Notes: a model not told the origin generated them from the sequence alone. DNA of 64,000 nucleotides from a bacterium (GCA_965203325.1 OZ241875.1:992001-1056000), one strand, 5' to 3'; positions 3,410-30,785 are shown, counted from the first letter of the stretch. Translations and numbers: made by a program.

Positions 3410-6400
3410 ATGGCAAAATCTGATGACAAAGCGGCGCGGATTCCCCTGCGACACCTCTCGGTACGCGTTCCATGGCACGATGCAGGCTGGGATGGGACGG
3501 TTTGCCAATTTCCGCGAAAAAACGCGAGTTGCCTCGCTTTGAACAGGATCGGAGCGATGAAAGACGATGATCTGGACGAGCTGCATGCAGGTAAGCATCT
3601 CGATCAGATACCACCGACCCAAGTACCGCCCTGCTTTACCGAACGGGTCAACTTCCTCTCTTCTCGTGCCCAGCAGCGGCTTGCTCATCACGCCTATTCG
3701 GATACGAGCGATCACCACAGCCACATATCCGACACATCATTCAGACATCCACCCTTCTCGGCGGCGGCAACACCGTACGGTTGGATGCTCAAGGAGAAAG
3801 CATGGGGAAAGGAATGGAAAAAAGGCGTAATCGACAGCCAGTCGATTGCCGAACGTTACGGCATAGAAGCACATCCAGAGTTCGAACCTGAAGAGCCCGA
3901 CTGGCTTGAAAGCAGGCCATGGATTCAGGGCGACAGGAATCAGAAAGCATTGCTCAATGCGTTCTTTGACGCGCTGAAACCGGAACGCAGTCTGGTATTC
4001 ATCTACGCAAAACGCACGCCACTGACCGACGATGAGCAGTGGACCATTATCGGAGCCGGGCGCGTTACAGCGATCGGGGATCTTGAGGAATGGGATTATG
4101 ATCCACAAAATCACAATGGACTGCGCTCCTATCTCTGGGAACGTTCCGTCCGCCACAGCATCAGGCTAGATGGCGATAACGGCGTGCTGTTGCCGTATCA
4201 TGATCTTCTTAGACGTTATGATGATGATTCGAGCATGGATCCGAGTGATTGCATCGCGTTCGTGCCAAAGGAGTACCGGAAGGAGTTTTCCTATGCAAGC
4301 GAACACGTGTCGTCGGGGACCGCCATTGCCGCACTGCTCTCGATTAAAGGGGCATTGTCAAACTATGCTCAACGCTTTGGAGGCGATTGGACACGGCAAC
4401 TGAAATGGATCGATCAGTGTCTCGGTGAGCTCTGGACGTTGCGCGGACCCTATCCCGGTCTTGGTTCCGTGCTATGCGCTATGGGTGTCGAGTACGGATA
4501 CCAGCTCGCGTACTACTGTTGGGACAAGGCTGGCGAAAAAGGCGATCCGTGGGAGGTTCTCGCAGCGCTTGTCAGGAATCCGAAGAAACTCCCGGCCGAC
4601 TTGAAGACACAGGTTGACGGATTTACTGACGTCTGGAAGTACCTTGCTAGTGAAAAAGGTAGGACACGGCTAGCCCTTGCAAAGTTGCTGGCTCGATTTG
4701 ACATCACCGGGCAGCAGGCTGAACGCTGGTGGGATCAGTCCGCGCGCAATCGCTCCGTTCTTCGGATTGACAACGAAGAGATCACCGACCGGGCGATTCT
4801 ACGGAATCCCTATCTGATCTACGAATGTGACCGGTATCAATTTGGACCGATTGCATTCCGCACCATTGATCAAGGGGTCTTTCCAGAACGGGCGATCGCA
4901 ACAGTCCATCCCCTTCCCGAGCCTTCTGCAATCAAGGGACCTGTCGATGGCCGGCGTTTACGCGCTGCCACCGCCGCGATACTAGAAGGTGCAGCGGAGG
5001 ACGGACATACGTTGATGGCACGTGAAGAAATTATCGCTCAGATCCGCGAACTGAATCTGAGTCCGGCTCTACCAGCAACGGACGACCTTTATGAAATCCA
5101 TGGAAAGCGCCTCACACCGGTTCTCGAAAGTTGCAACCTAGAAGACGGCAAGCCTGCCTACCAATTGGATCGTCTCCACATCACCCGTAAGCTGATTGCG
5201 TCCACAGTGCGCAGACGCGTCAAGATGGGCAAACGTCATAGTGTCGATATTGACTGGCGAAAACAGCTTGACTGTGAATTCAAGGATGAATTGCCCCCCA
5301 AAGGCTCGCTTGAGGACCGACGTCGTCATGAAAAGGCAGCCGCCCTTCGGGAAATCTCCGCTTCACGGTTTTCGGTGCTGATCGGCAAAGCCGGAACGGG
5401 AAAGACTACGCTATTAAAGTTTCTCTGCGAAGCTCCACCGATCAATCAGCGTGGCATATTGCTCCTTGCACCAACGGGAAAGGCTCGCGTGCGATTGCAG
5501 CAGGAAACCGGCATGGAAGCCCACACGATCGCGCAGTTTCTACGGCCAAGGCGGTACGACGATACTACACAGAGATACAAGGTGATTGGTGACATCGAGC
5601 GGTCGTCCACCTATAAGACTGTAATCGTGGATGAAGCATCGATGCTCACTGAGGAGCAGCTTGCTGCACTAATTGACTCACTCAGCGCTGTGGAACGGAT
5701 CATTCTAGTTGGCGATCCAAGTCAGCTCCCACCAATTGGGGCCGGCCGCCCCCTCGTTGACATCGTCAAGCTCCTTACCCCGGCGAATCTCCCTGCAGGA
5801 CGGCCACGTATAGGGACAGGCTATGCCGAACTGACACTTGGCAGCCGGCAGAAAGGCGCGCAGCGGCTAGACCTGGAATTTGCGGAACTATTCAGTGGCC
5901 GAGCGGCCGGTCCTGCCAGCGATGCGATCATCGGATTGCTCGCGCAAGGCGATTGCGGTCCGCATTTGCGGGTGTGCTCGTGGTCCACTCCTACTGAGTT
6001 GGCCACAATGCTACCTCAGATAATCAGCGAAGAGCTGAAGCTTGATCCTGCCGACGTTGAAAAGTCATTTGCGCTCAAAGCTCTCGGCGGCACTGAAAGT
6101 GGTGGATATCTCTATTTCAACTTCTGGTCTTCTGGCCACGCTGCGGATGGTTGGCAGGTGCTGTCTCCAGTGAAGGGTGAAGCAGCTGGAACCATCATTT
6201 TAAACCGGCTAATCCAACGTGGGTTCCGGCCGGAAATGCGGAAGTTTGCAACACCCAAAGATCGGCGATTCGCAAAGATAGCAACACCGATGGGTGCCGA
6301 CGGTATTGTCTATGGCGACAAGGTGATAAATCTACGCAACCACCGTCGGCACTCGGTTTTCCCGAAAGAACTCGACGACGGGACGCAGCCTCTCAAGTAT

Positions 6401-7204
6401 GTTGCCAACGGCGAAATCGGGATCGTTACTGGACCCTTCAAAAAACGAGGCAGCAAGGTCAGCCTAGATCAACTCAAAGTGACGCTTTCGTCACAGCGGG
6501 GATACGAGTACAGCTATTGGGCTAGTGATTTGGATGAAGACCAAAGGCTACTGGAACTGGCCTATGCCCTCACAGTACACAAGGCACAGGGGAGCGAATT
6601 CAACATGGTATTCGTCGTCCTGCCAAATCCCTGCCGAATCCTGTCTCGCGAACTCCTCTACACCGCATTCACGCGCCAAGAAACACGACTCGTTCTCTTT
6701 TGCCAGGATGAAGCACACAAACTCTTGGATTACCGCCATCTGTCCGATACAGCACGCCGCCTCACCAACCTGTTTGAAGCTCCTGAGCCGGTGCAGGTCG
6801 GAAAACACGCGTACGATAATAAGCACATTCATCGCTCACGCCGCGGTGAACTCATGATCTCAAAATCCGAAGTCATTATCGCAAACGAGCTTGCAAACGC
6901 CGGTATCGTCTATGAATACGAACGGCCGTTCATTGGAACGGATGGAACGCCGAGGCGCCCGGACTTCACCATTGAGGATGCCGATACAGGGCTCACTTGG
7001 TACTGGGAACATCTCGGAATGCTTGGCAACCTCGAATATGATGAAAAATGGAAGGCAAAACTAAAATGGTACCGCGAGAACGGAATCATCTTGGATCAGG
7101 AAGGAGGCGGTGAAAATGGGACATTGCTTACCTCGAGTGAAAGGGAAGGGATAGATCACGACCAGATTGCACGTCTCATAAGGAAGATCAAAGAAGGCGA
7201 ATAG
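3410..7204 (+). CDS. RecD-like SF1 helicase with long N-terminal region and C-terminal PD-(D/E)xK-type nuclease domain
   Basis: GKAGTGKT, LAPTGKA, IVDEASM, LVGDPSQLPPIG, YALTVHKAQGSEF, LLYTAFTR. C-terminal SKSEVIIANEL...PDFTI...YWEHLG nuclease-like motif. GGAG SD upstream. Confidence 0.85.
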   Translation: MAKSDDKAARIPLRHLSVRVPWHDAGWDGTVCQFPRKNASCLALNRIGAMKDDDLDELHAGKHLDQIPPTQVPPCFTERVNFLSSRAQQRLAHHAYSDTSDHHSHISDTSFRHPPFSAAATPYGWMLKEKAWGKEWKKGVIDSQSIAERYGIEAHPEFEPEEPDWLESRPWIQGDRNQKALLNAFFDALKPERSLVFIYAKRTPLTDDEQWTIIGAGRVTAIGDLEEWDYDPQNHNGLRSYLWERSVRHSIRLDGDNGVLLPYHDLLRRYDDDSSMDPSDCIAFVPKEYRKEFSYASEHVSSGTAIAALLSIKGALSNYAQRFGGDWTRQLKWIDQCLGELWTLRGPYPGLGSVLCAMGVEYGYQLAYYCWDKAGEKGDPWEVLAALVRNPKKLPADLKTQVDGFTDVWKYLASEKGRTRLALAKLLARFDITGQQAERWWDQSARNRSVLRIDNEEITDRAILRNPYLIYECDRYQFGPIAFRTIDQGVFPERAIATVHPLPEPSAIKGPVDGRRLRAATAAILEGAAEDGHTLMAREEIIAQIRELNLSPALPATDDLYEIHGKRLTPVLESCNLEDGKPAYQLDRLHITRKLIASTVRRRVKMGKRHSVDIDWRKQLDCEFKDELPPKGSLEDRRRHEKAAALREISASRFSVLIGKAGTGKTTLLKFLCEAPPINQRGILLLAPTGKARVRLQQETGMEAHTIAQFLRPRRYDDTTQRYKVIGDIERSSTYKTVIVDEASMLTEEQLAALIDSLSAVERIILVGDPSQLPPIGAGRPLVDIVKLLTPANLPAGRPRIGTGYAELTLGSRQKGAQRLDLEFAELFSGRAAGPASDAIIGLLAQGDCGPHLRVCSWSTPTELATMLPQIISEELKLDPADVEKSFALKALGGTESGGYLYFNFWSSGHAADGWQVLSPVKGEAAGTIILNRLIQRGFRPEMRKFATPKDRRFAKIATPMGADGIVYGDKVINLRNHRRHSVFPKELDDGTQPLKYVANGEIGIVTGPFKKRGSKVSLDQLKVTLSSQRGYEYSYWASDLDEDQRLLELAYALTVHKAQGSEFNMVFVVLPNPCRILSRELLYTAFTRQETRLVLFCQDEAHKLLDYRHLSDTARRLTNLFEAPEPVQVGKHAYDNKHIHRSRRGELMISKSEVIIANELANAGIVYEYERPFIGTDGTPRRPDFTIEDADTGLTWYWEHLGMLGNLEYDEKWKAKLKWYRENGIILDQEGGGENGTLLTSSEREGIDHDQIARLIRKIKEGE

Positions 7205-12340: not shown

Positions 12341-12586
12341 GTGGCAAGCATCACCATCCGCAATCTTGATGACGAAGTGAGGACGCGCCTGCGCGTCCGC
12401 GCCGCCGAGCACAACCGCTCAATGGAAGAGGAGGTGCGTATCATCCTGCGCGAAGCCGTGAGCGACAAGCAGTCCGCTCCCCGGAACTTGGCGAAGTTCA
12501 CCCGCGAGTGCTTCGCGCCCCTTGGCGGCGTCGATCTTGAACTTCCCCCGCGCGGACCGATGCGCGAGCCTCCGAATTTCTCCTGA
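12341..12586 (+). CDS. FitA/StbC-like ribbon-helix-helix antitoxin
   Basis: (M)ASITIRNLDDEVRTRLRVRAAEHNRSMEEEVRIIL. GGAGG SD before the GTG at 12341. Confidence 0.9.
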   Translation: MASITIRNLDDEVRTRLRVRAAEHNRSMEEEVRIILREAVSDKQSAPRNLAKFTRECFAPLGGVDLELPPRGPMREPPNFS

Positions 12587-12596
12587 GCCGCACTCC

Positions 12597-13025
12597 ATGC
12601 TGGTGCTTGACACGAATGTGGCCTCCGAACTCATGCGGCCGGAGCCGGCTTCCGCGGTCGCGACCTGGATTGCGGAGCGGGATACGCAGGAGATGTTCCT
12701 GACGGCGGTCAGCGAAGCGGAGTTGCTCTACGGCATCGCGATCATGCCTGCCGGCAGGCGCCGGGAAAGGTTGGCAGCTACCATGAACCAGTGGCTTGAA
12801 CTCGGCTTCTCGGAGAGAATTCTGCCGTTCGACAGCGCCGCCGCCCGCGCCTATGCCGAGATTGCTGCCGACCGCCGCCTCACAGGACGGCCGATCGGCG
12901 AGGCGGACTGCCAGATCGCCGCTATATCACGCTCGCGCGCCGCCATCCTGGTCACTCGTAACGTCCGTGATTTCGAGGGATCCGGCGTAGATGTCGTCGA
13001 TCCCTGGGCGGACGCTCGGAGTTGA
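12597..13025 (+). CDS. vapC: VapC/FitB PIN-domain toxin
   Basis: MLVLDTNVASE...SEAEL...DCQIAAI...LVTRNVRDF; directly follows the antitoxin. Confidence 0.92.
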   Translation: MLVLDTNVASELMRPEPASAVATWIAERDTQEMFLTAVSEAELLYGIAIMPAGRRRERLAATMNQWLELGFSERILPFDSAAARAYAEIAADRRLTGRPIGEADCQIAAISRSRAAILVTRNVRDFEGSGVDVVDPWADARS

Positions 13026-13102: not shown

Positions 13103-16100
13103 ATGGATCCCATACGTCCCAGACCGGAAGTGATGTACGTCGAAGCCAGGAAAAGACTCGTCACGTGGCTGCGCAAACAACTCATTGGGCCATCCTCCGA
13201 AAGCAGCCTGAGAATGTCCCCGCTGGATCGGTATCCAACCGGCGTACTCCATCCCATCGACCCCGATGTGTCCGGCATCGATCCGGCCTCCACAACCCAG
13301 GAAGAAGCCGAGCCGACCCTGCTGGATGAAGAGGATGACCCTACCGACTCTGACGACGATTCGGGCGATCGGAGGCTTGGGCAACCTGTTCGACGGCGGC
13401 GATACGTTCCACCCTCTTCTGTGGGATTCTCCTTCTTCGTTCGTGGTGCGGCGCGCCTTTCAATCACGGCCTCCGCCTCGATCTACAGGAGTAATGACGA
13501 CCGCGACGAGCACGGCCGATTTCGGCCGATCGAATACGTCCGGCAGGAGCTTCCCGAAGAGCCCGTCACGTGGTGCGGCTCCACATCCGCCAGTGAGTCA
13601 CGTACCGACATCTGGGATGGCTGCGCCGGGGTCGATGTTCGGGAGCGTCCTCACAACGATGGCCAAATTCTCACCGTCACCCTGTGCAACCGGAAAGAAC
13701 TTGACCAAGACGTGGCCCCAAATCTCAAGACCCGCGACCGGGTATACAAGGCGCTCTTCGAGGCGCGGCTCGAATGCCTCATAGAGAGCGGCGAGTTGGT
13801 CGAGTATCCGCGGGTCGAGGCGAGCCTCCTTACCGAGGAGGAGCAGGAACTTGAACTTCAGTACAGAGAACAACGAATCTACGCCATTGGACACGGAGCA
13901 GCCGCCAACTGGGATGTGAGCCCGGGCCGCACAGCGCAGATCCGGTCTGAGTTCATGCCGGAAACAGAAGTGCCCATGATGACCGTCAACACCGGCGGTG
14001 ACGATGCGGTGCTCAGCCTCAAGTACCTCGCCGACACGCCCGACACCGACAAGTTGGAGCACTTCGTCAACGGCTATGCTGACTGGATAGGCGAGCAGGA
14101 GCGCATCGCCACCAAGTTTTCCGAGAAGGACCAACGACTCGCCGCAGACCGAATATGCGCAAACATGCAAGTCGCGCTGGACCGTATGCGCGAATGCATC
14201 GAGATGCTTCGCACCGATCGACTCGCGTCCGAGTCATTTCGGATTGCGAACCAGGCGATGCTGGCTCAGATGAGCCAGGCTGATCGCATTGCCGGAAAGG
14301 AGACCGATCCCGGCGCGTACCGTTGGCGGCCGTTCCAGTTGGCCTTCCTTCTGACAGTGATGGTGTCCACGATCCACGAAGACGACGAGTTTCGCGATTT
14401 CCTGGACCTGATCTGGTTTCCTACCGGCGGCGGGAAGACAGAAGCCTACCTAGGTCTGATCGCGTTTCTGATCGCGTGGCGGCGCGCGAAGTTTCCCGAT
14501 TCAGGAAGAGGAACCACCGCCTTGATGCGCTACACCTTGCGGCTGCTGACCCGCCAGCAGTTCGAACGCGCCGCCCGCATGATTTTTGCTCTGGAACTGA
14601 TTCGCCGGCGCAATTCCGAACGCTTGGGCGATGATCCCATCGACATCGGCATCTGGGTCGGCAACGAGATCAGCCCCAACCACTACGAAGAGGCGAGGGA
14701 TATCGTCGAGCAGATAAGGCAAGGAAAGTCGGATGCGCGTTATCGACTTCTGCTCGAACGTTGCCCCTGGTGCGGCAAACCGTTCGACCCTGCGCGCGGT
14801 TATCGTGCCACCGATAACGAATTCAATTTTCAATGCACCAATCGTGAATGCGCATTCGGCGAGGACGCACGCGCTCTACCGTGCAACGTCGTGGACGATG
14901 CGCTCTATGACCGACCGCCGTCGCTGCTGATTGCGACCATCGACAAGTTCGCGCGCCTAGCCTGGGAAGAGCGTACCGGCGCCTTCTTCGGCGTCGGTAA
15001 CAGGTCGCGCCCGCCAGAATTGATCATCCAGGACGAACTGCATCTGATCACCGGCCCCTTGGGTTCGGTCGCAGGGCTGTACGAGGCGGGACTCGACACC
15101 CTACTCGTCCGCCGCGGCGTCCGACCTAAGTACGTCGCGTCCACCGCAACCATCCGCATGGCGAAGGATCAAGTGAAGCGTCTCTATGCGCGCGATCTAG
15201 CCGTATTTCCTCCTCCGGGGTTGTCTCACGACGATACGTACTTCGCCCGTACCGACCTTGAACGTCCGGGTCGGCTCTATGTCGGATTCCTCGCCCCAAT
15301 GCTCAATCAACAGCACTGTCTCGGCCCGCTCGCCTCGGCGCTGCTCGCCGGCCCTGAGGCATTGTTCGACCACGACATGGACCGGGACGCACTGCTCGAT
15401 GCCTGGTGGACTCAGGTCGTATACCATGGAAGCCTCAAGGGTCTCGGGAACAGCCACAATGCATTTGTCATCGACGTCCGTGACTTCGGCCGATGGCTCG
15501 TTAACGGGCTTCAGCATGAGGATGAGCTTGATCTTGCCGCCGAAAAGGACGCATTAGCGGAGAATTCGTCCGACACCCTGCTTCGATTCAGCAATACCCG
15601 GATTGCCCAACTCACTAGCCGCCGAACGGCGCGGGAAAACGCAGAGACATTTCAACAGCTGACAATTGCGCAAGGAGACGAGGGTTGTCTCGACGCGGTT
15701 CTGGCGACCAACATGGTGTCGGTGGGCCTGGACGTCGCTCGCCTTGCCCTGATGATCGTCAACGGCCAGCCGCTGACCACCGCAGAGTACATTCAGGCCA
15801 CCAGCCGCGTCGGCCGGGCCGATGTCCCCGGTCTTGTCGTGGCCAACTATTACCGGCATCAGGCTCGCAGCCTCTCGCATTACGAGAGCTTTCGCCCCTA
15901 CCACGAATCGTTCTACCGGTTCGTGGAGCCGAGCAGTGTCACTCCTCATACCTTCCAGGTGCGGTCCCGCGCACTTCACGCCGCTCTTGTCATTGCCATT
16001 CGGCACGCTTGCACGGAACTACAGGCCAACAAGTCGGCCGGAAAGTTCAACCGGGAGTCCGAAGAGGTCAAAGCCGTCATCGTGGCATTCAAGGGACGCT

Positions 16101-16354
16101 GCAAACGCGCGGCGGCCGAGGAGGCGCAAGACAACGACATCGTTTCCCACATCGACAGCCTCGTCGGTCAGTGGCATGATGAAGCGAGACGCTGCGAGCA
16201 AGAACGTAGGGAGTTTCGTTACACGGCGTATGCCAATGAAAAAAACGCGGATCGGCTTCTCTACTCGCATGGAGAGCCGCGCCGGGGGCTTTGGGCGACA
16301 CTCAACTCGATGCGCAACGTGGAAGGCCATGGATCGTTGAGGATTCGTGATTGA
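13103..16354 (+). CDS. DISARM DrmA-like SF2 helicase
   Basis: WRPFQ, WFPTGGGKTEAYLG, RYTLRLLT, Zn-finger CPWCG..C..C, IQDELHLI, STATI, ATNMVSVGLDV, EYIQATSRVGR. Confidence 0.88.
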   Translation: MDPIRPRPEVMYVEARKRLVTWLRKQLIGPSSESSLRMSPLDRYPTGVLHPIDPDVSGIDPASTTQEEAEPTLLDEEDDPTDSDDDSGDRRLGQPVRRRRYVPPSSVGFSFFVRGAARLSITASASIYRSNDDRDEHGRFRPIEYVRQELPEEPVTWCGSTSASESRTDIWDGCAGVDVRERPHNDGQILTVTLCNRKELDQDVAPNLKTRDRVYKALFEARLECLIESGELVEYPRVEASLLTEEEQELELQYREQRIYAIGHGAAANWDVSPGRTAQIRSEFMPETEVPMMTVNTGGDDAVLSLKYLADTPDTDKLEHFVNGYADWIGEQERIATKFSEKDQRLAADRICANMQVALDRMRECIEMLRTDRLASESFRIANQAMLAQMSQADRIAGKETDPGAYRWRPFQLAFLLTVMVSTIHEDDEFRDFLDLIWFPTGGGKTEAYLGLIAFLIAWRRAKFPDSGRGTTALMRYTLRLLTRQQFERAARMIFALELIRRRNSERLGDDPIDIGIWVGNEISPNHYEEARDIVEQIRQGKSDARYRLLLERCPWCGKPFDPARGYRATDNEFNFQCTNRECAFGEDARALPCNVVDDALYDRPPSLLIATIDKFARLAWEERTGAFFGVGNRSRPPELIIQDELHLITGPLGSVAGLYEAGLDTLLVRRGVRPKYVASTATIRMAKDQVKRLYARDLAVFPPPGLSHDDTYFARTDLERPGRLYVGFLAPMLNQQHCLGPLASALLAGPEALFDHDMDRDALLDAWWTQVVYHGSLKGLGNSHNAFVIDVRDFGRWLVNGLQHEDELDLAAEKDALAENSSDTLLRFSNTRIAQLTSRRTARENAETFQQLTIAQGDEGCLDAVLATNMVSVGLDVARLALMIVNGQPLTTAEYIQATSRVGRADVPGLVVANYYRHQARSLSHYESFRPYHESFYRFVEPSSVTPHTFQVRSRALHAALVIAIRHACTELQANKSAGKFNRESEEVKAVIVAFKGRCKRAAAEEAQDNDIVSHIDSLVGQWHDEARRCEQERREFRYTAYANEKNADRLLYSHGEPRRGLWATLNSMRNVEGHGSLRIRD

Positions 16355-16422
16355 CCCCCGTGGTCACTGCCGGGCGATGGAAACCGGCACTGCAACAGTG
16401 AGCCCGGAAATGGTGCCGGCAC

Positions 16423-18282
16423 ATGACTGAAGATCATATTCCGGTTCGGCTCTCGCACCTGCTTCGCGACTGCTCGGTGGGAGCCATCGTGCGCGGTCCG
16501 GACAGCCTGATGGTGGTTCAGGACACACGCGACTGGGACCGATCGGACAGCGATCCTCTGGAGCGTGAGATCCGGTATGTGGACCGGGTGCGAAGCGCTC
16601 TGGGCATCAAGGAGAAGCTCTGCGCGCCGCCTCGAGCGGTTGAGCGTGATGGAACGGTGGCGGGATGGATTCCGGCGTTAAGGTTTCCAACCTGGATGCG
16701 TTGTCTGAGATGCGGCCTGATGCATTCGGCGCCCTGGCGGAAGCGACCGTCGAAGGGCGAAAGTGGATCGCATCCGGATATGGCCAATCCCCGGGAATCG
16801 TGGAAATGCGAAGAGTGCGAGGGCCGACTGGAGCAGACACCGTGGGTCCTCATCCACGAAGAGGGCTATCTCGCCGACGTGCCTTGGCACGACTTGGCCC
16901 ACCGAAACAGTCGCAATCCCGAACATCGTCAATGCGCTCCCGACTGGTCGAGTCCCTATTTGAAGCTGGAAGAAACAGCTCTGGGCCGTCGACTTAGCTG
17001 CAACAAATGCGGTTCGCAAATGATATTCTCCACGACCATGGTTACCCGGACAAAGTTCCCGTACCGCGTCTGGCAACAACCCTGGATTCGCGAACCGCCG
17101 GTTCAACCCCCGGAAACCGAGGCTTGGTTGGTAGAGATCAACGATGTGCGCGTGCACTATCCCGTGACGCGCACCGCACTTGTCATTCCGCCGGAGTCGC
17201 GTATCCGGCAGGGAACGGTGACGGACCGTCTCCACAACAGCACCCGGGGCCAAGAAAGAGTCCGGAGAGCAAGAAATTCATTGGCACGCAAGGCAGCCGT
17301 CAAGCAACTCGCCAACGACTTTCGGTGCACTAATGAGGAAATCGAGCAAGCCATCCGGGACATCGATGAAGGCTATCCACTATACGGCCGATCGATCACC
17401 GATACCGATCTCTTGGCCGACGAATACGGTGCGCTCACCGGGGAAATCCCCGATCTCAGGGAAGACGAAGACTTCGTCACCAAACACCATACGCGCGCTT
17501 GGCGGCGACTCGGGCGGACTTTTGGCAGCGGCGGCATCGCACGACGCGTCATCAGTGCCGTTTCCGGCCTTGTGGCCGTCAACAGGTTGAAGGAAATTAT
17601 GGCGCTCATCGGTTTCCGGCGCGCCGGAGGGGACAAGACGACGACGCCCGACATCACCGGCGAGACGGGCTGGCTTCCAGCACTCGAGCTGCATGGCGAA
17701 GGCATCTTCTTCACCCTCGATGAAGACATGTTGCGGCGCTGGGAAGACAGCGACGCGATTCGTGCACGGGCGGACGCTTTCTCCAGGCGATACTTGAAGC
17801 GGACCGGGCCGGATTCCCCCGGGAGAGACGTTGAAGTCTCGCCGCGTTTCCTGTTCTGCCACACGCTTGCCCATCTCATGATCCGCGAACTCGATGCCAG
17901 GGCCGGATATCCTGCCGCCTCGCTCAAGGAACGCATCTACTGCGCCACCGGAGATGAGCCGATGGCTGGGATACTGATCTATGTAGCTGTTCCGGACGAG
18001 GAGGGCTCGCTCGGCGGCCTGATGGAGCTCGCCAAGCCGCATCGTTTCCTGCGTCTCTTGACCAGAGCATTCGAAGCCGCGGCCTGGTGCTCACTGGATC
18101 CGGTATGTTGTGAGCAGGAAGGGCACGGACCGGATCTGCTGAACCGCGCCGCCTGCCATGCCTGCGTCTTGGTACCCGAGACGAGTTGTGACCATGAGAA
18201 TGTTCTCCTCGATCGGGTTTTCGTTAACGGCGCAGGAAAGGACATTCCGGCGTTTCTGGATTTTGCTGGGACGTTCGACTGA
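16423..18282 (+). CDS. DISARM DrmB-like DUF1998 (MrfA-like Zn-binding) protein
   Basis: Several CxxC pairs; HTLAHLMI, YPAASLKERIY, EGSLGGL, CSLDPVC...ACHAC...SC; follows the drmA-like gene. Confidence 0.88.
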   Translation: MTEDHIPVRLSHLLRDCSVGAIVRGPDSLMVVQDTRDWDRSDSDPLEREIRYVDRVRSALGIKEKLCAPPRAVERDGTVAGWIPALRFPTWMRCLRCGLMHSAPWRKRPSKGESGSHPDMANPRESWKCEECEGRLEQTPWVLIHEEGYLADVPWHDLAHRNSRNPEHRQCAPDWSSPYLKLEETALGRRLSCNKCGSQMIFSTTMVTRTKFPYRVWQQPWIREPPVQPPETEAWLVEINDVRVHYPVTRTALVIPPESRIRQGTVTDRLHNSTRGQERVRRARNSLARKAAVKQLANDFRCTNEEIEQAIRDIDEGYPLYGRSITDTDLLADEYGALTGEIPDLREDEDFVTKHHTRAWRRLGRTFGSGGIARRVISAVSGLVAVNRLKEIMALIGFRRAGGDKTTTPDITGETGWLPALELHGEGIFFTLDEDMLRRWEDSDAIRARADAFSRRYLKRTGPDSPGRDVEVSPRFLFCHTLAHLMIRELDARAGYPAASLKERIYCATGDEPMAGILIYVAVPDEEGSLGGLMELAKPHRFLRLLTRAFEAAAWCSLDPVCCEQEGHGPDLLNRAACHACVLVPETSCDHENVLLDRVFVNGAGKDIPAFLDFAGTFD

Positions 18283-19442
18283 TGTCCAAACGCAAGTTCG
18301 AACTCCCGGGCATTCAGGATCTCAGCAAGGAGCAGGAAGCGGCGCGCGCCCTGCCCAAGGATGGCCGGCATCTTATCGTGGGTGGTCCGGGAACGGGGAA
18401 GTCCGTTCTTGCGCTGATTCGTGCGCGCCGTCATCAACGGGATCGGGACGACTACCTGTTTCTGGTCTTCAACCATCTCCTGAACCGCGCGAGCGGTCAG
18501 TTGTTCGGCAGCGATCTCGTCGCCAGAACCTGGATTGAGTGGTTTTTGGAAACTTTCCAGTCGATCACGGGCCGAGCCACTCCGCGGCTTCCAGGAAACA
18601 ACGGCTTTAGAGATATCGATTGGGATGCCGTCAAGCACATAGTTGATAGGTTGCCCAACATCGATGTTCGCCCCTTGCCGTTCCTCGTCATCGACGAGGG
18701 CCAGGACATGCCACCAGACTTTTACAATACCTTGGTCAGCCTCGACTTCGAGCGCTTCTTTGTGGTCGCCGATCAAAACCAGCAGATCAAGGAGGCGAAC
18801 AGCAGCCGCAGGGAGATACAGGATTGCCTGGTCATCGAGACGGGGGATGTGATCGAGCTTCACCACAACTACCGGAATGACTACCAGGTCGCGAAACTGG
18901 CGAACGCCTTCTACACCGGCGACCCGGCCAGCCCACCTCCCGAACTCCCACCTTCCGCGCCCGGACCTGAACCGATCCTCTACGACTACGATCAGGACAG
19001 GCTGGAGGTAGCCGTGCGAGCCATCCTGCTCCTCGCCGACCGCGACCCGCGACAGCTCATTGGTGTCATCGCACCGAATAACCAGGTCAGGGAGCGGTAT
19101 TTCGAAGCGCTCCGATCCGCGGAGGTGAAGCTCGACAACCCACCGCCCGCAATCGTTACCTACCATGGTCAGAACCGTACAGAGGTGGCATTCGACGAAG
19201 GCGGCGTCCTCGTCATCAATGCGCAGGCATGCAAGGGGCTTGAGTTCGATACCGTCGTGCTGGCCGACATCGACGAGCATTATATCCCCCGCGCCGATCC
19301 GGACGTGGCGAGGCGCCTTTTCTATGTCATGGTCGCGAGAGCGAGGGAGAGGGTGTTCATGTTCATGAAGCGCAACGGGCGCAAGGAGATTGAGCGCATC
19401 CTGCCCGCCGACCCCAACCTCCTCCGACGGGAGGGGATGTGA
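18282..19442 (+). CDS. Compact UvrD-like SF1 helicase/ATPase
   Basis: GGPGTGKS, VIDEGQD, DQNQQI, NYRN, KGLEFD, FYVMVARAR. TGATG overlap with the upstream gene. Confidence 0.85.
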   Translation: MSKRKFELPGIQDLSKEQEAARALPKDGRHLIVGGPGTGKSVLALIRARRHQRDRDDYLFLVFNHLLNRASGQLFGSDLVARTWIEWFLETFQSITGRATPRLPGNNGFRDIDWDAVKHIVDRLPNIDVRPLPFLVIDEGQDMPPDFYNTLVSLDFERFFVVADQNQQIKEANSSRREIQDCLVIETGDVIELHHNYRNDYQVAKLANAFYTGDPASPPPELPPSAPGPEPILYDYDQDRLEVAVRAILLLADRDPRQLIGVIAPNNQVRERYFEALRSAEVKLDNPPPAIVTYHGQNRTEVAFDEGGVLVINAQACKGLEFDTVVLADIDEHYIPRADPDVARRLFYVMVARARERVFMFMKRNGRKEIERILPADPNLLRREGM

Positions 19443-21025
19443 TGGAAATGGGAGACTTGTTCGAGTCGAACAACCCGCCCGATCGGGGAAACGCGCCCAG
19501 AGCGGGGTATCTGGTGACCAATCAACTCAACCTGATGTACATGCTCGCCGCAGGTTTGATGATCCCGCCCGCCGGCTTCGGGGGTAAATACTACCGGGAT
19601 ACGCTTGAATGTTTCCCCGGCTGGATTCCCTTGTTCATCGACAAGGTGTCCAAGGCAGCGATCGAGTTTTCCACGAAAGATGCCAGACACCTCAAACCGT
19701 GCATCATCGAGGTCAACCTGTCCGGATTGTCGGGCCGAGTGATGGCGCTCGGAAGCGCTGGCCTGAAGGAGCTTCGTTTTCCGGAACAATCTGAAAGAAC
19801 TGACCGCGTGCTGCTGTTTCCCGCACCGCTACCTGTGTCCCGGATCGAGTCGGTGATTTTTCAGTCGGCAGACGACAAACGGGCGGTCGAAGCGGACGCC
19901 AAAGACTTTGGCAACGTTCCGCTGGAGGAATTCAAGCGTAGAAGTCTCAAGACACTATTCACGAAGGCTTCCGATATCCAATGGCCACCCGAACAGGGGT
20001 CTGAAGACCGATCTACACCCCTGCAAGGATCCCTTGCAGCCGGCGGTGTCATGGCGATGCTGCTCCTCTTCGCCAATCTCGGCGAGCAGGCGGCTCTGGC
20101 TTGCCGGGATGCCTTCGATCCTGACGATGCCGCGATTCAGCCCGCCTGCAATCTTCCAATCCTTGCCGGACTTGAATCCTGGATCCGGGACGGAGTGGCG
20201 TCACTGCCGGAATCCACGGATATGGAAACGGATCGAGCCGATCTCCAAAACACCTCCCAAGCCAAGCTGTTTTGGAAAGCAATTGATCGGCTGGTGAAAT
20301 GGAGAGATTCCCCTCAAACCGACACCACCGAGAATATTATCATCGACCATCTCTCCGCGGCCATTACCGGCCTCGACCCGAGACTGCAGGCGGGCGTGCA
20401 AAAACTCCACGATACGCTTGTGTCCCTGACCGGCTTGGCCGACGCCACGACCAGTGAGTTGCTCGATCGCCACGATACGCCCCTGGGCCGAGCCTTGACT
20501 CTGTTCTTCCTACGCCGGGACTGCGCGGACCTTTTCGACTATGAGAGCGATCGGCTCACCGAGCCGGACTGGTTGGCTGCCGCTATCTTTTTCGGCGTTC
20601 GGGATGGATGGATGAACCTCCCTCTTCGACTCCGTTCGGGCCGTGATCTTTCGAACGCGGTTTCCCACCGCATGGCGCGTCTTTCTCATCGGATTGCCGG
20701 TACCGGTCTGGAACTTGGCGAAATCCCACCCAGGGTCCGGCCGCTACGCGAACTCTTCGGTGACGGATCGGCTTGGCGATCCAGAAAGAAGTCCGCTGCA
20801 CTGGCGCTCGCACGAGCGCGGAAATGGGACTGCGTTCATACTCGCATCAACCTCGGTCGGAGGAAATACAAGTTGAGCGTCAGGGGCGGTTCGACGCAGA
20901 TCGAAATGCCCGGCGAGCCCCGCATAACCCCCGAAGTCGACACGAGTCGCTTCTTCGACTTGCTCGCCAGTGCGCGCCTCGACCACCATAGCGCCGCAAA
21001 GATTCGCGGAATGCTCCAGGGCTGA
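19439..21025 (+). CDS. Uncharacterised 528-aa protein; N-terminus possibly a degenerate ADP-ribosyltransferase (DarT-like) fold
   Basis: Long ORF overlapping the upstream stop. YLVTNQLNLMYMLAAGL and VLLFPAPLPVSRIESVIFQS resemble ART strand motifs (by eye only). Confidence 0.7.
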   Translation: MMEMGDLFESNNPPDRGNAPRAGYLVTNQLNLMYMLAAGLMIPPAGFGGKYYRDTLECFPGWIPLFIDKVSKAAIEFSTKDARHLKPCIIEVNLSGLSGRVMALGSAGLKELRFPEQSERTDRVLLFPAPLPVSRIESVIFQSADDKRAVEADAKDFGNVPLEEFKRRSLKTLFTKASDIQWPPEQGSEDRSTPLQGSLAAGGVMAMLLLFANLGEQAALACRDAFDPDDAAIQPACNLPILAGLESWIRDGVASLPESTDMETDRADLQNTSQAKLFWKAIDRLVKWRDSPQTDTTENIIIDHLSAAITGLDPRLQAGVQKLHDTLVSLTGLADATTSELLDRHDTPLGRALTLFFLRRDCADLFDYESDRLTEPDWLAAAIFFGVRDGWMNLPLRLRSGRDLSNAVSHRMARLSHRIAGTGLELGEIPPRVRPLRELFGDGSAWRSRKKSAALALARARKWDCVHTRINLGRRKYKLSVRGGSTQIEMPGEPRITPEVDTSRFFDLLASARLDHHSAAKIRGMLQG

Positions 21026-21032
21026 TCCCGTC

Positions 21033-22628
21033 ATGCGCATGGTCCCAAGCGCGCCGTTCGACACAGGAAGCCAGGCGGAGAAACGGGTCTTCGAACGGCT
21101 CTGCCGCACCTTCGATGACCGATATACCGCCTATCATTCCTTGAAACCAACCACACATCCGTACAAACAATATCCGGAGATCGACTTCGTCATCTGCGGC
21201 CCGGAAGGGCTGTATGTACTGGAGGTGAAGGGCGGAAGAATCGCCTTAAGCGAGGGCGCATGGCATTACCAGGATCGTTACGGTCGAATCACTCCCCATA
21301 TGGAAAGTCCTTTTCGTCAGGCAGAGACCGCGTTGCATGGGCTTATGGAAAAACTGTGCACCCATCTTTCCTCCACTGTCCTCAGTCGCCTTCGAAGAGG
21401 GTATGGCGTGGTATTCCCCGATTGCGAATGGCAGGCCTACGGATCGGAATGGGATCCGGAGATGGTTGCCGACAGACAACGCAGCCGGGACATGGAAGGC
21501 TGGCTTCGCCAGCTTTTCGAATACTGGAAAAACCGTGGCGGACCGCGAGAACAGGCTGATGACGATACGCTGAGAATTATCCGAGAGCACATTCGCCCGA
21601 ACGTGAGTGCCTCAATCGGGCTGTATGAGGCGCCTGACCCTCTGTCTCAACAAGTGGAAGACGCAGAACGACGCATTGAGCGTATGACTGAAGACCAGAT
21701 GCGAATGTCGGATGTGGCGGAAGCCAATCCGCGAGTGCTTTGCGCGGGTGGCGCCGGAACCGGGAAGACGTTTCTGGCTGAAAGGCTGGCCCGCCGCTGG
21801 ACCGAATACGGCATGCAGGTGGTACTGGTATGCCGATCACCTTGGCTGCGGCACCACCTCGCATCGCGGCTTGCGATCCCTGGCCTGACCGTATCGCTAA
21901 TTGACGGCGTCCACTTGGATTGCCGACGAGCCGGACTGGATCGCTTCGATGCATTGATCGTGGACGAGGGCCAGGACCTGTTCGAGATGGCCAGCATCGG
22001 CATGCTGAACGACGTTCTTGCCGGTGGGTTGGAGAAGGGTCGCTGGTGCTGGTTTCACGATCTGAACAACCAGGCACTCACCCGGCGCTTCGAGCCGCGC
22101 GCGAAGGAATACCTGGAATCGATCAACCCCGTACGCATGCCGCTGCGCACCAACTGCCGGAACACCAGGGTTATCCTGGAATGGGTTCAAGACACTCTCG
22201 GCGCTGACGTTGGTACACGCGGAGCCGGCGCCGGTCCAGAGGTCCGCCGGCATACAGTCTCCGGCCAGCACGAATCCGCCGAGCGCGTTGTCCGAGAGGT
22301 TGCTGAGTTCGTTGACATAGGAGGTCTCGCGCCTGGTTCCGTGACAATTCTCTCACCCTTCGATTACGCCGATTCCTCCGTGGCCCATGTGCCAGCGGAA
22401 GTTGCAGATCGGATTTGCCGTCTGGACGAGTACTCGGTGCGGAGAATTCCGGGCGACAAGGTTGGATTCGCTCGGATCGACGAATTCAAGGGCCTGGAGA
22501 ATGAGGCTGTCATCGTCGTCGATCTTTCCGCTCCGAACCAGACGAACAGAGAATTGGCGGCCCACTACGTAGCTATGACCCGGGCTCGCTCGCTGTTGTC
22601 CATCGTTCAAAGAGAGTCTCGTTTTTGA
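21033..22628 (+). CDS. NERD nuclease fused to an SF1 helicase/ATPase
   Basis: AEKRVFERL...EIDFVI...VLEVKGG (NERD); GGAGTGKT, IVDEGQD, NCRN, KGLENE, YVAMTRAR. Confidence 0.88.
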   Translation: MRMVPSAPFDTGSQAEKRVFERLCRTFDDRYTAYHSLKPTTHPYKQYPEIDFVICGPEGLYVLEVKGGRIALSEGAWHYQDRYGRITPHMESPFRQAETALHGLMEKLCTHLSSTVLSRLRRGYGVVFPDCEWQAYGSEWDPEMVADRQRSRDMEGWLRQLFEYWKNRGGPREQADDDTLRIIREHIRPNVSASIGLYEAPDPLSQQVEDAERRIERMTEDQMRMSDVAEANPRVLCAGGAGTGKTFLAERLARRWTEYGMQVVLVCRSPWLRHHLASRLAIPGLTVSLIDGVHLDCRRAGLDRFDALIVDEGQDLFEMASIGMLNDVLAGGLEKGRWCWFHDLNNQALTRRFEPRAKEYLESINPVRMPLRTNCRNTRVILEWVQDTLGADVGTRGAGAGPEVRRHTVSGQHESAERVVREVAEFVDIGGLAPGSVTILSPFDYADSSVAHVPAEVADRICRLDEYSVRRIPGDKVGFARIDEFKGLENEAVIVVDLSAPNQTNRELAAHYVAMTRARSLLSIVQRESRF

Positions 22629-23186: not shown

Positions 23187-24380
23187 TTAGGTATCTTCGC
23201 TAATCTCTGGGTTGGGTTCGACGTGGAATGCAATATCAAAAACCTTTTGTCCCGTTCCCTCGACAGTGCATGTCGCTGACTTCAAATTAGCAAGGGGTAG
23301 ATTCTGGTTAAATCCCTCGAGAAAATATTTCGCCGTATCAAAGGCCATCTTTGGCGTCACCTTAGTTCCAGGCATTTCATAGTTAGTCTCCTGTTCTTGA
23401 TTGAGATTATACCTCTGATCATAATACCGAAAGTTAACTTTCATCGTCATAATAGCTCCTACATGTTTAGCGTTATCAAAGTGTCGTTGTGATAACGAGT
23501 CCCCAAACATCGGCATGGCCGCTTCCTGAGCGATCAGCTTAGCAATACACAGTGAAAGCAAACAAAGCACTTCCGCTGTTTCCTGCTCATGAGGTAGCCA
23601 GGCATTTTTGCGCTTGAGGTTTCCATGAAAATAGAAGCCTCTCTTTTCGACGAGATGATCGATTACTGCTTCAGGCGTCGGAAATGCTGAAATCAGTTTT
23701 TCTGTATCAGAATTCCGAGAATGCGTCGGGAACCTGCATTCCTTAAGTGCATTTCCAACAATTGACACAAATTCAATATTTCTTTTTAGAGCATTTTTGA
23801 GTTGTCCAGCCTTATATTTTCCGTCGCCGTAGAGAGACTCAACCAATAAGAAAGAATAACGAAATGAGTCAATATATCTTCCTTGCAACATCTCTGTTCG
23901 CGCCATTTTGAAAAGATTTGCCTCCAACTTTGGGGCTATCCCTGTTTCTGCTGCCATAATCGCACGAGAGAAAAGGTGGTATGGCACGATCAATGGGGGT
24001 TTGTCGTTTTTAGATTTGAAACTCTTTATCTCAATCTCTTTCTCTTCCTCTTTTGTCTCCCCGATGTACTTGGCCTCTATCTCATCAGCAAGAATTTCCA
24101 CATCGAAATAACACTGGAAATACGCCTGCATCTCTTCCAGTTGCATTTTTACGAATGGCAGTAGTTTATCACGCCCATTCATGGTGAATGCGACTTCCCC
24201 TTCTTCGTGCCTCTCCAACATTGGTGCCATATCCACCGATTGACCTGAGAAACTGATTTCAAAGGCAATTACCACCCCATCTTGTGATACAGCGCGGAAC
24301 TCACCACCCATGATAGGAATAGGCCAATGATCTTCGATGTAGATCGGCTCTCTGAGTTCCACGAGGTATCGAATAAGCAT
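23187..24380 (-). CDS. Hypothetical protein with HEPN-like Rx4H motif
   Basis: 397 aa, visibly AT-rich. SFRYSFLLVESL followed later by KRGFYFHG (R-x4-H). Confidence 0.65.
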   Translation of the reverse strand: MLIRYLVELREPIYIEDHWPIPIMGGEFRAVSQDGVVIAFEISFSGQSVDMAPMLERHEEGEVAFTMNGRDKLLPFVKMQLEEMQAYFQCYFDVEILADEIEAKYIGETKEEEKEIEIKSFKSKNDKPPLIVPYHLFSRAIMAAETGIAPKLEANLFKMARTEMLQGRYIDSFRYSFLLVESLYGDGKYKAGQLKNALKRNIEFVSIVGNALKECRFPTHSRNSDTEKLISAFPTPEAVIDHLVEKRGFYFHGNLKRKNAWLPHEQETAEVLCLLSLCIAKLIAQEAAMPMFGDSLSQRHFDNAKHVGAIMTMKVNFRYYDQRYNLNQEQETNYEMPGTKVTPKMAFDTAKYFLEGFNQNLPLANLKSATCTVEGTGQKVFDIAFHVEPNPEISEDT

Positions 24381-29678: not shown

Positions 29679-30785
29679 TCACAGGTCGATTGCGCATCGG
29701 ACGTCATGCGCTGCAAAGAGATCCACGAGGTCCTCGACGCTCAGGTCGAGCAAACCGGCGACACGCCGCACCGAGACGCAACCCTCCTCTAACGCGAGTC
29801 CGAGCACCTCCATGAAGGGTCTCGAGAACAGGGCGGGCGGGATGTTCTCGGCGACGTCTGGCCTGTTGTTGCGCAATGCCGCATCCGGCAGGGAACGCGC
29901 AGCCGCAGGTTTCAATTCGCCGAGCGCGACCAGCCGCCATTTCAGCGCCGAGGCCGTCACGCCAAACTCGTTCGCCACCGCGTTCAGCTTCCCGGTCAAA
30001 TCATCCTGAACGAGGTTCGACCAGTTCCCGAACCGCGCCAGGATAGCGGCCGGCATCAGAACCGCCGCCGCGAAGTTGTTGGCGAGTTGCTCGGCGCGGT
30101 TGCCTCCGGTCTCCATCGCTTCCTCGGAGTGTTCGGGCGGCATCGCATCCCAAGTCAGGATGTGAAAGAGCTCATGGGCGAGATCGAAGTGACGGCGTCC
30201 GACAACCTCGCGTCGTGCGATCAGCACCGCGTCGAGTTCGGGCAGGCGGCAGGCCGCGCCCGAGATGCCGCGTTCGGCATCCATCATGAGAACCAGGATG
30301 CCGAGTTCACGTTCCATGACTTCCACGAGGCGCACAGCGGGGACCTCGCCGAGATCGAATTCGGTGACGAACCGTTCGCCAGCCGACATGGCATCCTCAA
30401 AACGCGAACGGCGAGTGAGGCCGAGCGCCCGCCTCATTAGCGGGGTTTCGTAACCGACCTGTGGCGCCAGGGTGCGGAACGCGGCGATCCAACGTCCGGC
30501 GCTGCGTTCACAGGCTTCAAGCCGTTCAGCGCCGACGCCGGTCTGGCGCCAGGAGAAGCGTCCTTCGCCCGCTAGCCGGAACGGATCGGTGAAGTACTCG
30601 ATCGGAGCGTCCAGTCTTTCGACCGCGAGTAATAATTCCTCCGCCGTCACGCGTCTGGCGCCCGTCTCGATGGCCGATACCGTCTGCCGGTCCCTGAAAC
30701 CGAAGATCTCCGCTACACTCTCCTGCGAGAGCCTGCGTTCCTCTCGCAATGCCTTGATCCGCCTGCCGATAAGCCCTGTCGTCAT
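29679..30785 (-). CDS. XRE HTH + ImmA/IrrE (M78) Zn metallopeptidase
   Basis: N-term HTH IKALREERRLSQESVAE; HELFH (HExxH); EQLANNFAAAVLMP. Confidence 0.92.
   Translation of the reverse strand: MTTGLIGRRIKALREERRLSQESVAEIFGFRDRQTVSAIETGARRVTAEELLLAVERLDAPIEYFTDPFRLAGEGRFSWRQTGVGAERLEACERSAGRWIAAFRTLAPQVGYETPLMRRALGLTRRSRFEDAMSAGERFVTEFDLGEVPAVRLVEVMERELGILVLMMDAERGISGAACRLPELDAVLIARREVVGRRHFDLAHELFHILTWDAMPPEHSEEAMETGGNRAEQLANNFAAAVLMPAAILARFGNWSNLVQDDLTGKLNAVANEFGVTASALKWRLVALGELKPAAARSLPDAALRNNRPDVAENIPPALFSRPFMEVLGLALEEGCVSVRRVAGLLDLSVEDLVDLFAAHDVRCAIDL

Follow-up and report, generated by a model that had tools for sequence, protein, structure and literature searches.

Operon layout and identity of its genes

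The bacterial DNA analysed here is a stretch of 64,000 nucleotides (GCA_965203325.1 OZ241875.1:992001-1056000; hereafter the window, borne by genome G000), which carries at positions 13103-22628 an operon of five open reading frames (ORFs) in one orientation, encoding proteins of 1083, 619, 386, 528 and 531 amino acids (aa). The operon joins a DrmA/DrmB core to a short UvrD-like helicase, a 528-aa protein with two predicted ADP-ribose-related folds and a NERD nuclease-helicase. The genes are numbered by their order in the operon, and all five are single-copy in the window's genome. The features of the operon are as follows.

13103..16354, + strand: gene 1 (drmA), DrmA-like superfamily 2 (SF2) helicase, short form, 1083 aa; PADLOC DrmA 2e-201, PDB 7s9v E 1e-128
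16423..18282, + strand: gene 2 (drmB), DrmB with DUF1998/MZB zinc domain, 619 aa; NF038324, PF09369
18282..19442, + strand: gene 3 (uvrD-like), short UvrD-like superfamily 1 (SF1) helicase/ATPase, 386 aa; Pfam UvrD_C_2, AAA_19
19439..21025, + strand: gene 4, predicted fusion of a DarT-like ADP-ribosyltransferase (ART) and an ADP-ribosylhydrolase (ARH)/DraG fold, 528 aa; AlphaFold2, Foldseek, VIA-align
19487..19963, + strand: gene 4 residues 17-175, predicted DarT-like ART fold; Foldseek 7omx E 5.4e-5, VIA-align 7omw Z 9.7
20018..20701, + strand: gene 4 residues 194-421, predicted ARH-like helical fold; VIA-align ARH3 6d3a Z 12.2
20708..21022, + strand: gene 4 residues 424-528, conserved C-terminal helix/beta-sheet part; confidently modelled by AlphaFold2, outside the structural matches
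21033..22628, + strand: gene 5, NERD (PD-(D/E)xK) nuclease fused to an SF1 helicase, 531 aa; PF08378 1.2e-10

The drmA and drmB genes are separated by 68 bp, drmB and gene 3 meet in a TGATG (18280-18284), gene 4 starts with a GTG at 19439 beside the gene 3 stop codon TGA at 19440-42, and a gap of 7 bp (21026-21032) separates gene 4 from gene 5. The ORFs and junctions confirm the layout given in a preliminary description of the locus, which had reported five co-oriented genes with the last four overlapping or 7 bp apart. An in-frame ATG at 19442 offers an alternative start for gene 4, giving a protein of 527 aa, and M2 is nearly invariant among its relatives. Promoter and terminator scans of the operon gave results no better than chance.

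Gene 1 scored 839.7 bits against the NCBIfam DrmAS model (NF038325), under the cut-off of 950. Its alignment to Serratia DrmA (PDB 7s9v) begins at about residue 146, indicating that the N-terminal part of the Serratia protein is absent, and spans both helicase domains and the acidic trigger-loop region, with V1073 of gene 1 as the counterpart of the base-contacting V1296 of Serratia DrmA. The Walker A motif, the DELH box and the zinc cysteines are intact and conserved in a 46-row alignment. Gene 2 scored 340.3 bits against NF038324 (DrmB), above the cut-off of 240, and keeps the DrmB cysteine cluster in a 62-row alignment; together with the PADLOC match of gene 1, this score upholds the DrmA/DrmB core that had been proposed from the sequence.

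The helicase motifs of gene 3 are conserved in a 73-row alignment, and its profile matched PcrA, HelD, UvrD and Rep in the PDB. The AlphaFold2 model of gene 3 (pLDDT 90.5) contains two RecA-like domains and no long insertion at the 2B position of the second one, as predicted for a UvrD-family helicase without a 2B domain. Gene 5 also matched PADLOC RTasNERD-Hel (6.6e-43), and both the NERD residues E16, H35, D52, E64 and K66 and every helicase motif are conserved in a 60-row alignment. The earlier labels of genes 3 and 5, UvrD-like and NERD-helicase, thus stand on SF1 and NERD plus SF1 family matches.

Predicted folds and catalytic residues of gene 4

Gene 4 matched no family in Pfam, PADLOC 2.0 or NCBIfam. 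In PADLOC, gene 4 and eight relatives stayed unmatched and a real DarT control was matched, and comparison of the gene 4 sequence with the PDB returned nothing useful (best E 0.074). An AlphaFold2 model built with a 111-sequence alignment reached a pLDDT of 95.0 and a pTM of 0.93. When this model was compared with known structures by Foldseek, all four matches with E below 0.001 were DarT, followed by DarT1, Tpt1 and ARH3. VIA-align, run on Foldseek's best 1000 chains, placed residues 17-175 on DarT (7omw; Z 9.7, root mean square deviation [rmsd] 3.3, 151 residues aligned), the ART fold being nearest to DarT2 (Z 9.7) and then to DarT1 (Z 9.1). Residues 194-421 were placed on ARH3 (6d3a; Z 12.2, rmsd 3.7, 216 residues aligned), with rows 1-28 all of the ARH fold. 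A language-model search added two independent leads that agree with the gene 4 folds, at scores below 0.9. Because the 28 leading rows belong to one family and the two language-model leads concur, we argue that the ARH match is true. Gene 4 is predicted from these models to be a DarT-like ART fold fused to an ARH fold. The preliminary description had listed the 528-aa gene as unknown, which holds for family matching, and had missed this predicted fusion, the most informative part of the locus.

DarT binds NAD via H13, T15, N19 and Y71, requires both R51 and E160, and follows an unusual, arginine-based mechanism (PMC9967889). To compare these residues, gene 4 was set against small DarT and ARH alignments with hhalign (E 0.088 and 0.13, non-significant), which served only for register; the N-terminal register (DarT H13, T15, N19 and Y71) was read by eye, and that of the Glu came from hhalign. 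Residue counts are from the 111 rows used for modelling. Gene 4 residues T27, N31 and W62 correspond to the NAD-contacting T15, N19 and Y71 of DarT and are kept in 99/111, 108/111 and 89/111 rows, while L25 and V124 occupy the positions of His13 and the catalytic Glu160; His was found at the H13 column and Glu at the E160 column in 0/111 rows each. In the ARH region, Asp at the first DxDT column was likewise found in 0/111 rows, and a TDD-type motif occurs anywhere in the region in 14/111 rows and a DxDT-type motif in 6/111, against 5/5 real ARH controls. H345 (77/111) may be the histidine of the ARH TH motif, but an Arg precedes it. With the canonical ART and ARH catalytic residues missing across the family, gene 4 is predicted to be a pseudo-enzyme.

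No Pfam match to DarT or ARH was found in the window's genome. Seventy shorter gene-4 forms, 43-93% identical, are apparently fragments; none carries the name DarT or ARH, so that no split, active ancestor of gene 4 was found among them. Canonical ADP-ribosylglycohydrolase and ARPP-1 genes lie near some operon copies, too few for linkage, at 1694-2650 in locus L013, 18047-19243 in L079 and about 1172-2155 in L012 and L045.

Predicted complex of genes 3 and 4

To model their association, the products of genes 3 and 4 were co-folded, which gave an interface score (ipSAE) of 0.84, compared with 0.01 for the best of three controls; the multimer modelling suggested in the preliminary description thus predicts that the two proteins bind. 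A score this high was obtained for 116 of 157 solved complexes and for 2 of 215 mismatched pairs, rates that are only approximate for the alignments used here. The runs share at least 87% of their contacts, with a partner pLDDT of at least 87. In the predicted complex, residues 7-23 of gene 3 dock onto residues 30-37, 49-52, 82-84 and 152-160 of the ART domain of gene 4, and the second RecA domain of gene 3 contacts residues 331-339, 358-359 and 392-395 of the ARH domain, so that the model has gene 4 clasping the short UvrD-like helicase. K50, Y52 and N159 of gene 4 (conserved at 90-95%) oppose L8 and P9 of gene 3 (90-92%), and the best-conserved residues of the ART domain, K50, Y52, Y34 and N159, all lie in the predicted interface. 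We know of no solved complex like that of genes 3 and 4.

Conservation and distribution of the operon

Relatives of gene 4 numbered 615 among 8000 scored candidates and 440 among 50%-identity cluster representatives. We mapped 88 related loci (L-labels), 9 from genomes (G-labels) labelled Alpha- and Gammaproteobacteria and 79 metagenomic, their flanks reaching no more than 3.8 kb upstream of drmA and roughly 10 kb on the downstream side; neighbour counts use only those of the 88 with enough flanking sequence. The uvrD-like gene lies immediately upstream of gene 4 in 75 of 76 testable loci and the NERD-helicase gene immediately downstream in 67 of 72, and gene 4 is accompanied by drmB in 62/62 and by drmA in 47/48. 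The gene-neighbourhood check that had been recommended for the 528-aa protein thus revealed a conserved five-gene order. Since this order recurs in loci whose lowest per-gene identities to the window copy are about 28-48%, it reflects more than chance. Across the 26 full loci and the window, pairwise distances measured on one of the five genes track those measured on the others (Spearman 0.73-0.88), which kinship alone could produce, and gene 4 diverges fastest, with a mean p-distance of 0.58 versus 0.42-0.46 for the other genes. Among the exceptions to the usual order, L040 carries a transposase-like ORF upstream.

The operon is conserved but patchily distributed. Gene 4 was absent from all 50 of the host phylum's other genomes that were searched, and no relatives of genes 3 and 4 were found in viral contigs. 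A search of plasmids with gene 3 matched three records. Plasmid P4 of Deinococcus gobiensis I-0 (DGO_RS20360-20380) carries all five genes in the order NERD-drmA-drmB-uvrD-gene 4; its gene 4 scored 63.8 bits against the gene-4 profile (E 5.7e-16 at Z=1e6) and surfaced only by profile, a tblastn search of plasmids with gene 4 having given no match. In Photobacterium pdp3, drmA-drmB-uvrD is followed by a fourth gene with a weak gene-4 score. Two canonical DISARM loci, a Nostoc locus and a second Deinococcus locus carry no gene-3/4 module (6 of 54 DrmB plasmid matches were examined).

Further observations were made in individual copies. In the Photobacterium loci L116 (9061-10464) and L117 (10197-11648), a fourth gene of 467-483 aa follows the short uvrD gene; the two proteins are 35% identical to each other and scored 10.6 bits and below 5 bits against the gene-4 profile, a weak lead to what may be very distant relatives. 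A 1273-aa gene with a sigma-70 domain heads the drmA-drmB-short uvrD operon of L114 (136-10068), and L005 too has a sigma factor nearby, an MzaA-like one. Directly before drmA, and often overlapping it, a DEDDh (RNase_T) exonuclease gene of about 205 aa is found in L018, L020, L022, L023, L024, L034, L036 and L046, a possible sixth gene in one sub-clade that echoes the MrfA-MrfB pairing. Genome G060 holds a second gene-4 copy interrupted by about 1.5 kb (C1 2351982-2355095), and G059 holds two intact copies (C18 and C46) about 62% and 92% identical to that of the window.

Missing DISARM partners and the proposed methylation link

Family scans with Pfam, PADLOC 2.0 and NCBIfam covered 15-17 proteins of window positions 141-38833, and models of DrmC, DrmD, DrmE and methylases matched none of the five genes or the scanned adjacent ORFs, in line with the earlier claim that DrmC, a methylase and the other DISARM partners are absent here. 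The sole PLDc_2 match of the genome lies at 3.04 Mb, about 2 Mb from the operon, and its C5 methylases are more than 200 kb away. Two annotated DrmC proteins used as queries found nothing in the window's genome or in the ORFs of L001-L089, and both match the phospholipase D (PLD) pattern as controls. When PLD and methylase motif patterns were run over all ORFs of the 88 loci, within their limited flanks, five matches appeared and no plausible DrmC or methylase was among them, which is also the outcome of the check proposed for homologous loci. The first annotation of the flanks took longest ORFs, with some wrong-strand frames in GC-rich loci. Because the family-library scan of the flanks covered 52 selected flank or plasmid proteins, the absence of DrmC and methylase there rests on the motif and phmmer tests of all ORFs. 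No upstream gene family was found conserved across the loci besides the DEDDh exonuclease of eight loci.

Linkage to type I restriction-modification (R-M), which the preliminary description had proposed for distinguishing self from non-self, is not conserved across the related operons. In the window, hsdM-hsdS-hsdR lies 10-18 kb upstream, and hsdR, at about 10 kb, does not adjoin the operon as had been implied, vapBC and other defence genes lying between. A strong HsdM occurs within about 25 kb of only 1 of 9 related intact operons in 8 genomes (G060, about 17 kb), 5 of the 9 being on short contigs; an HsdR-like gene is immediately upstream in 1 of 88 loci (L039), and the window's HsdM as query found no relative in the 88 loci. 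Since they were found near few operons, R-M genes appear to be occasional island neighbours and not partners. A type III Res gene lies near L004, and a dcm gene lies 7 kb downstream in L116.

Comparison with known systems

DISARM was reportedly divided by Ofir and colleagues in 2018 into classes 1 and 2. DrmD is a component of class 1 and DrmE of class 2. With these classes the operon shares a split DrmA helicase and a DrmB (DUF1998) encoded directly after it (PMC9142583). It differs in that no DrmC PLD nuclease, DrmMI or DrmMII and no DrmD or DrmE match is found, that three other genes follow drmB, and that its DrmA lacks the N-terminal part of class 1 DrmA and scores below the NCBIfam cut-off. 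By membership the operon is not DISARM class 1 or 2; by analogy it would work like DISARM at its core. In DISARM itself, DrmC is often missing and is dispensable, the cutter is unknown, and targeting is independent of the methylation site (Bravo 2022, PMC9142583). The same source describes DrmAB as autoinhibited, loading on single-stranded DNA (ssDNA) with a 5' overhang, requiring its ATPase and having that ATPase damped by methylated DNA.

No named system beyond DrmA/DrmB was matched in PADLOC 2.0, NCBIfam or Pfam, so that the PADLOC check suggested earlier yielded no full match. The statement that no named system could be assigned stood, and the added remark that the operon may be catalogued holds only to the extent that the DrmA proteins of relatives sit in an unnamed bin. 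At least three are listed as 'DISARM-like helicase' by Bell et al. 2025 (bioRxiv 10.1101/2025.09.15.676423): OXO52_17275 (the DrmA of L004), OXK82_05515 (that of the P0020 genome) and DGO_RS20365 (that of D. gobiensis). This paper describes the DISARM-like clade as comprising many uncharacterized classes; its accessible text gives these relatives no system name, and its main text does not contain 'ADP'. It also describes ARMADA (a YprA helicase fused to a DUF1998 module, with a PglX-like methylase and a BrxHII-like helicase), TALON (a fused helicase with TPR-CSD and TBP genes) and BRIGADE (a fused helicase with a 7-deazaguanine cluster). These three candidates were rejected: their helicases are fused and belong to another clade than the operon's DrmA, whereas the helicase and DUF1998 are split here, their partners were not found, and relatives of the operon are classed as DISARM-like.

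Comparison with ADP-ribosylation systems revealed a closer likeness for genes 3 and 4. In DarHTG / Liu-DS3, a 2B-less UvrD-like helicase, DarT and the ARH-like antitoxin DarG3 defend jointly (NAR 2026, PMC13069673), and genes 3-4 share with it a 2B-less UvrD-like helicase next to predicted folds of the DarT and ADP-ribosylglycohydrolase-like kinds. DarHTG depends on a catalytically active DarT, with DarG3 described as the antitoxin, and its accessible description mentions neither DrmAB nor a NERD gene; in the operon, both predicted folds lie on one chain inside a DrmAB operon and the canonical residues are missing, DarHTG having been compared by description. The ART fold of gene 4 is near those of DarT2 and DarT1, but gene 4 has no Pfam or PADLOC DarT match and no catalytic Glu, and its partner fold is ARH and not the macrodomain or NADAR of DarTG1 and DarTG2. 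Compared with ARH/DraG enzymes, the predicted helical fold is present and the TDD and DxDT metal-site motifs are not. A further locus, on Rhizobium rhizogenes plasmid pC5.7d (L120) beside McrBC-type genes, shares DrmA, DrmB and a NERD-helicase instead of DrmC; it differs in a full-length UvrD placed upstream (9.6 bits with the gene-3 profile), a NERD-helicase only 27% identical and no gene-4 relative.

No published description of the operon was found in the literature searched, with most subscription papers and bioRxiv supplements outside reach, and the accessible parts of 10.1101/2025.09.30.679545, PMC12595487, PMC11090510, PMC9881135 and PMC9503650 do not describe it. A link between ADP-ribosylation systems and DISARM-type restriction was likewise not found in print within that literature.

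Genomic surroundings in the window

The operon sits in a defence island that includes type I R-M, PDC-S68, a PD-Lambda-4A-like gene and vapBC.

3410-7204: RecD2-like SF1B helicase; PADLOC candidate PDC-S68, 1455 bits
7547-11824: 1425-aa protein with N-terminal MqsA-type helix-turn-helix (HTH); PD-Lambda-4A match 3e-96
12341-12586: vapBC, antitoxin-like ORF of 81 aa (label by eye)
12597-13025: vapBC, VapC PIN toxin; the pair is directly upstream of drmA

A vapC gene also precedes drmA in L001 and L002, and in L017 and L036 one is inserted after drmB, ahead of gene 3. The type I R-M genes, with hsdM and hsdS labelled by eye, occupy about 986950-995236 of G000 C1, from 5 kb before the window to window position 3236, and genes labelled by eye as an ATPase (439 aa) and an HNH-type protein (217 aa) lie between hsdS and hsdR. 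The island may be mobile, as a relaxase-like ORF of 938 aa (label by eye) precedes the window by about 12-15 kb. Downstream of the operon, on the minus strand, are a convergent low-GC ORF of 397 aa with no match in Pfam, PADLOC or NCBIfam (23187-24380), an RmrA-like protein with HTH and IrrE/M78 peptidase (29679-30785), and a 1694-aa fibronectin-III/Ig/cadherin repeat protein of about 75% GC (32173-37257).

Proposed mechanism and alternative explanations

Considered together, the five genes may constitute one methylase-free, DISARM-like anti-phage or anti-plasmid machine in which gene 4 gates the helicase, a reading that we judge evenly balanced as a whole and whose parts differ in strength. 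By analogy with its homologues the operon very probably has an anti-invader role, the NERD nuclease-helicase is probably the cutter, and, from the models, gene 4 is reasonably likely to be a non-catalytic helicase partner. From homology (Bravo 2022), DrmA and DrmB would likely load onto stretches of invader DNA that are exposed in single-stranded form. The NERD nuclease, on its own SF1 motor, would likely degrade that DNA in the place of DrmC; the coupling of DrmAB to a NERD effector suggested in the preliminary description remains likely, with NERD and helicase motifs intact in the 60-row alignment. The gene-4 protein likely holds and gates the short UvrD-like helicase, perhaps through bound NAD+ or ADP-ribose, and self would be told from non-self by DNA structure (5' overhangs and ssDNA) and not by a mark encoded in the operon. 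In the simplest history, a DarHTG-like module would have been captured, its two ADP-ribose domains fused and their catalysis lost. The weakest of our conclusions, drawn by analogy, are the descent of genes 3-4 from such a module and the binding of NAD+ or ADP-ribose in the retained pocket.

A number of observations weigh against this single-machine reading with a non-catalytic gene 4. In 5 of 72 loci, gene 5 is not found intact in its usual place (missing in L042, L063 and L070, a stub of 46 residues in L008, a distant NERD-helicase placed upstream in L087), and drmA is missing in 1 of 48 (L005). Among distant sets, the Photobacterium loci L116 and L117 have drmA-drmB-uvrD without a NERD gene, and Streptomyces p1 (L114) has drmA-drmB-uvrD only, genes 4 and 5 being absent; in this one case, the helicase lacks the Leu-Pro start conserved in the other gene-3 proteins. 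Because these sets do without gene 5 or both genes, genes 4 and 5 appear dispensable to the clade as a whole, and the plasmid and distant sets indicate that drmA-drmB-short uvrD is a wider core, with the five-gene form as one large and stable class inside it. The predicted interface is barely above average in conservation on gene 4 (0.49 versus 0.44; 0.61 versus 0.54) and below average on gene 3 (0.59 versus 0.64). The ARH match (Z 12.2) falls short of the value of about 13 below which the tool advises caution with helical domains, a common arrangement being possible there. The residue registers rest on non-significant hhalign alignments and reading by eye, without a residue-level structural alignment, and conserved acids stay unexplained: D54 (111/111), position 81 (acidic in 106/111) and D377 (acidic in 106/111). 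Owing to these weak registers and unexplained acids, 'pseudo-enzyme' is only a prediction, and D54, position 81 and D377 leave room for a non-canonical active site in gene 4. Finally, the short flanks (at most 3.8 kb upstream of drmA) limit the claim that DrmC and methylase are absent.

It is unlikely, in our estimate, that gene 4 is instead an active enzyme with a non-canonical site, placing ADP-ribose on DNA as a self mark in lieu of methylation or as a tag on unwound invader DNA. DarT is the closest fold, the NAD-contact positions are kept (T27, N31 and an aromatic residue at 62), D54 is invariant and K50 is present in 106/111 rows; the arginine-based mechanism of DarT is itself unusual (PMC9967889), the methylase-free operon still keeps the valine equivalent to V1296, and DarHTG depends on an active DarT (PMC13069673). 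Against this, the His and Glu of the H13 and E160 columns occur in no row, whereas DarT requires R51 and E160 (PMC9967889); K50 and Y52 are accounted for by the predicted helicase interface; and the loss of the ARH metal motifs leaves no evident eraser in a genome with no other DarT or ARH match. It is quite unlikely that two modules, DrmAB with the NERD-helicase and a decayed DarHTG-like relic, merely travel together with no shared mechanism. Such a pairing would fit the Rhizobium locus L120, where DrmA-DrmB-NERD occurs without gene 4, the frequent co-location of defence systems and the fast divergence of gene 4, but genes 3-4 have drmB on one side and the NERD gene on the other, with overlapping codons, drmB is present in every testable gene-4 locus (62/62), gene 3 directly follows drmB in 4 of 4 plasmid or distant relatives examined, and gene 4 is full-length and conserved over 440 clusters at 50% identity, unlike a relic.

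The two remaining alternatives concern methylation and repair. That the operon tells self from non-self by borrowing the methylation of the nearby type I R-M genes is very unlikely: a strong HsdM lies within about 25 kb of only 1 of 9 related operons, some proximity is expected from 3-32 N6-methylase matches per genome, the window's HsdM has no relative in the 88 loci, and three unrelated systems intervene. These counts are set against the hsdM-hsdS-hsdR genes 10-18 kb upstream here, the HsdM about 17 kb off in G060, the HsdR-like gene directly upstream in L039, and the retained V1296 counterpart together with the damping of DrmAB ATPase by methylated DNA (PMC9142583). That the operon serves DNA repair or clean-up, with an MrfAB-like helicase, a UvrD-like helicase and a nuclease acting on ADP-ribosylated or damaged DNA and not on invaders, is highly improbable. 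YprA/MrfA helicases do include a repair branch (10.1101/2025.09.15.676423), UvrD-like and NERD proteins work on DNA, and ADP-ribose-related folds could read an adduct; yet the operon has a split DrmA/DrmB helicase, relatives are classed as 'DISARM-like' in the defence branch of the same study, and the operon is missing from 50/50 genomes of the phylum and found in a defence island and on plasmids.

The single-machine reading also admits a more specific and doubtful form, in which gene 4, its writer and eraser halves both dead, serves as a 'reader', with NAD+, ADP-ribose or ADP-ribosylated DNA switching the helicase and the NERD nuclease. If this were true, invader versus self, or infection, would be sensed via ADP-ribose chemistry instead of DNA methylation, and a toxin-antitoxin pair would have been domesticated to supply the DISARM-like machine with a sensor subunit.

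For DISARM, neither the means of DNA destruction nor the way in which self is spared has been settled, and an operon with neither methylase nor DrmC but with a fixed nuclease-helicase makes both questions testable with five genes; a cultured and harmless carrier is available in D. gobiensis I-0, on plasmid P4. A widespread unannotated family gains a predicted fold. The surprising part is the predicted ART-ARH fusion bound, in the model, to a helicase, which suggests that a DarT/hydrolase toxin-antitoxin pair may have been fused and reused as a helicase-binding subunit.

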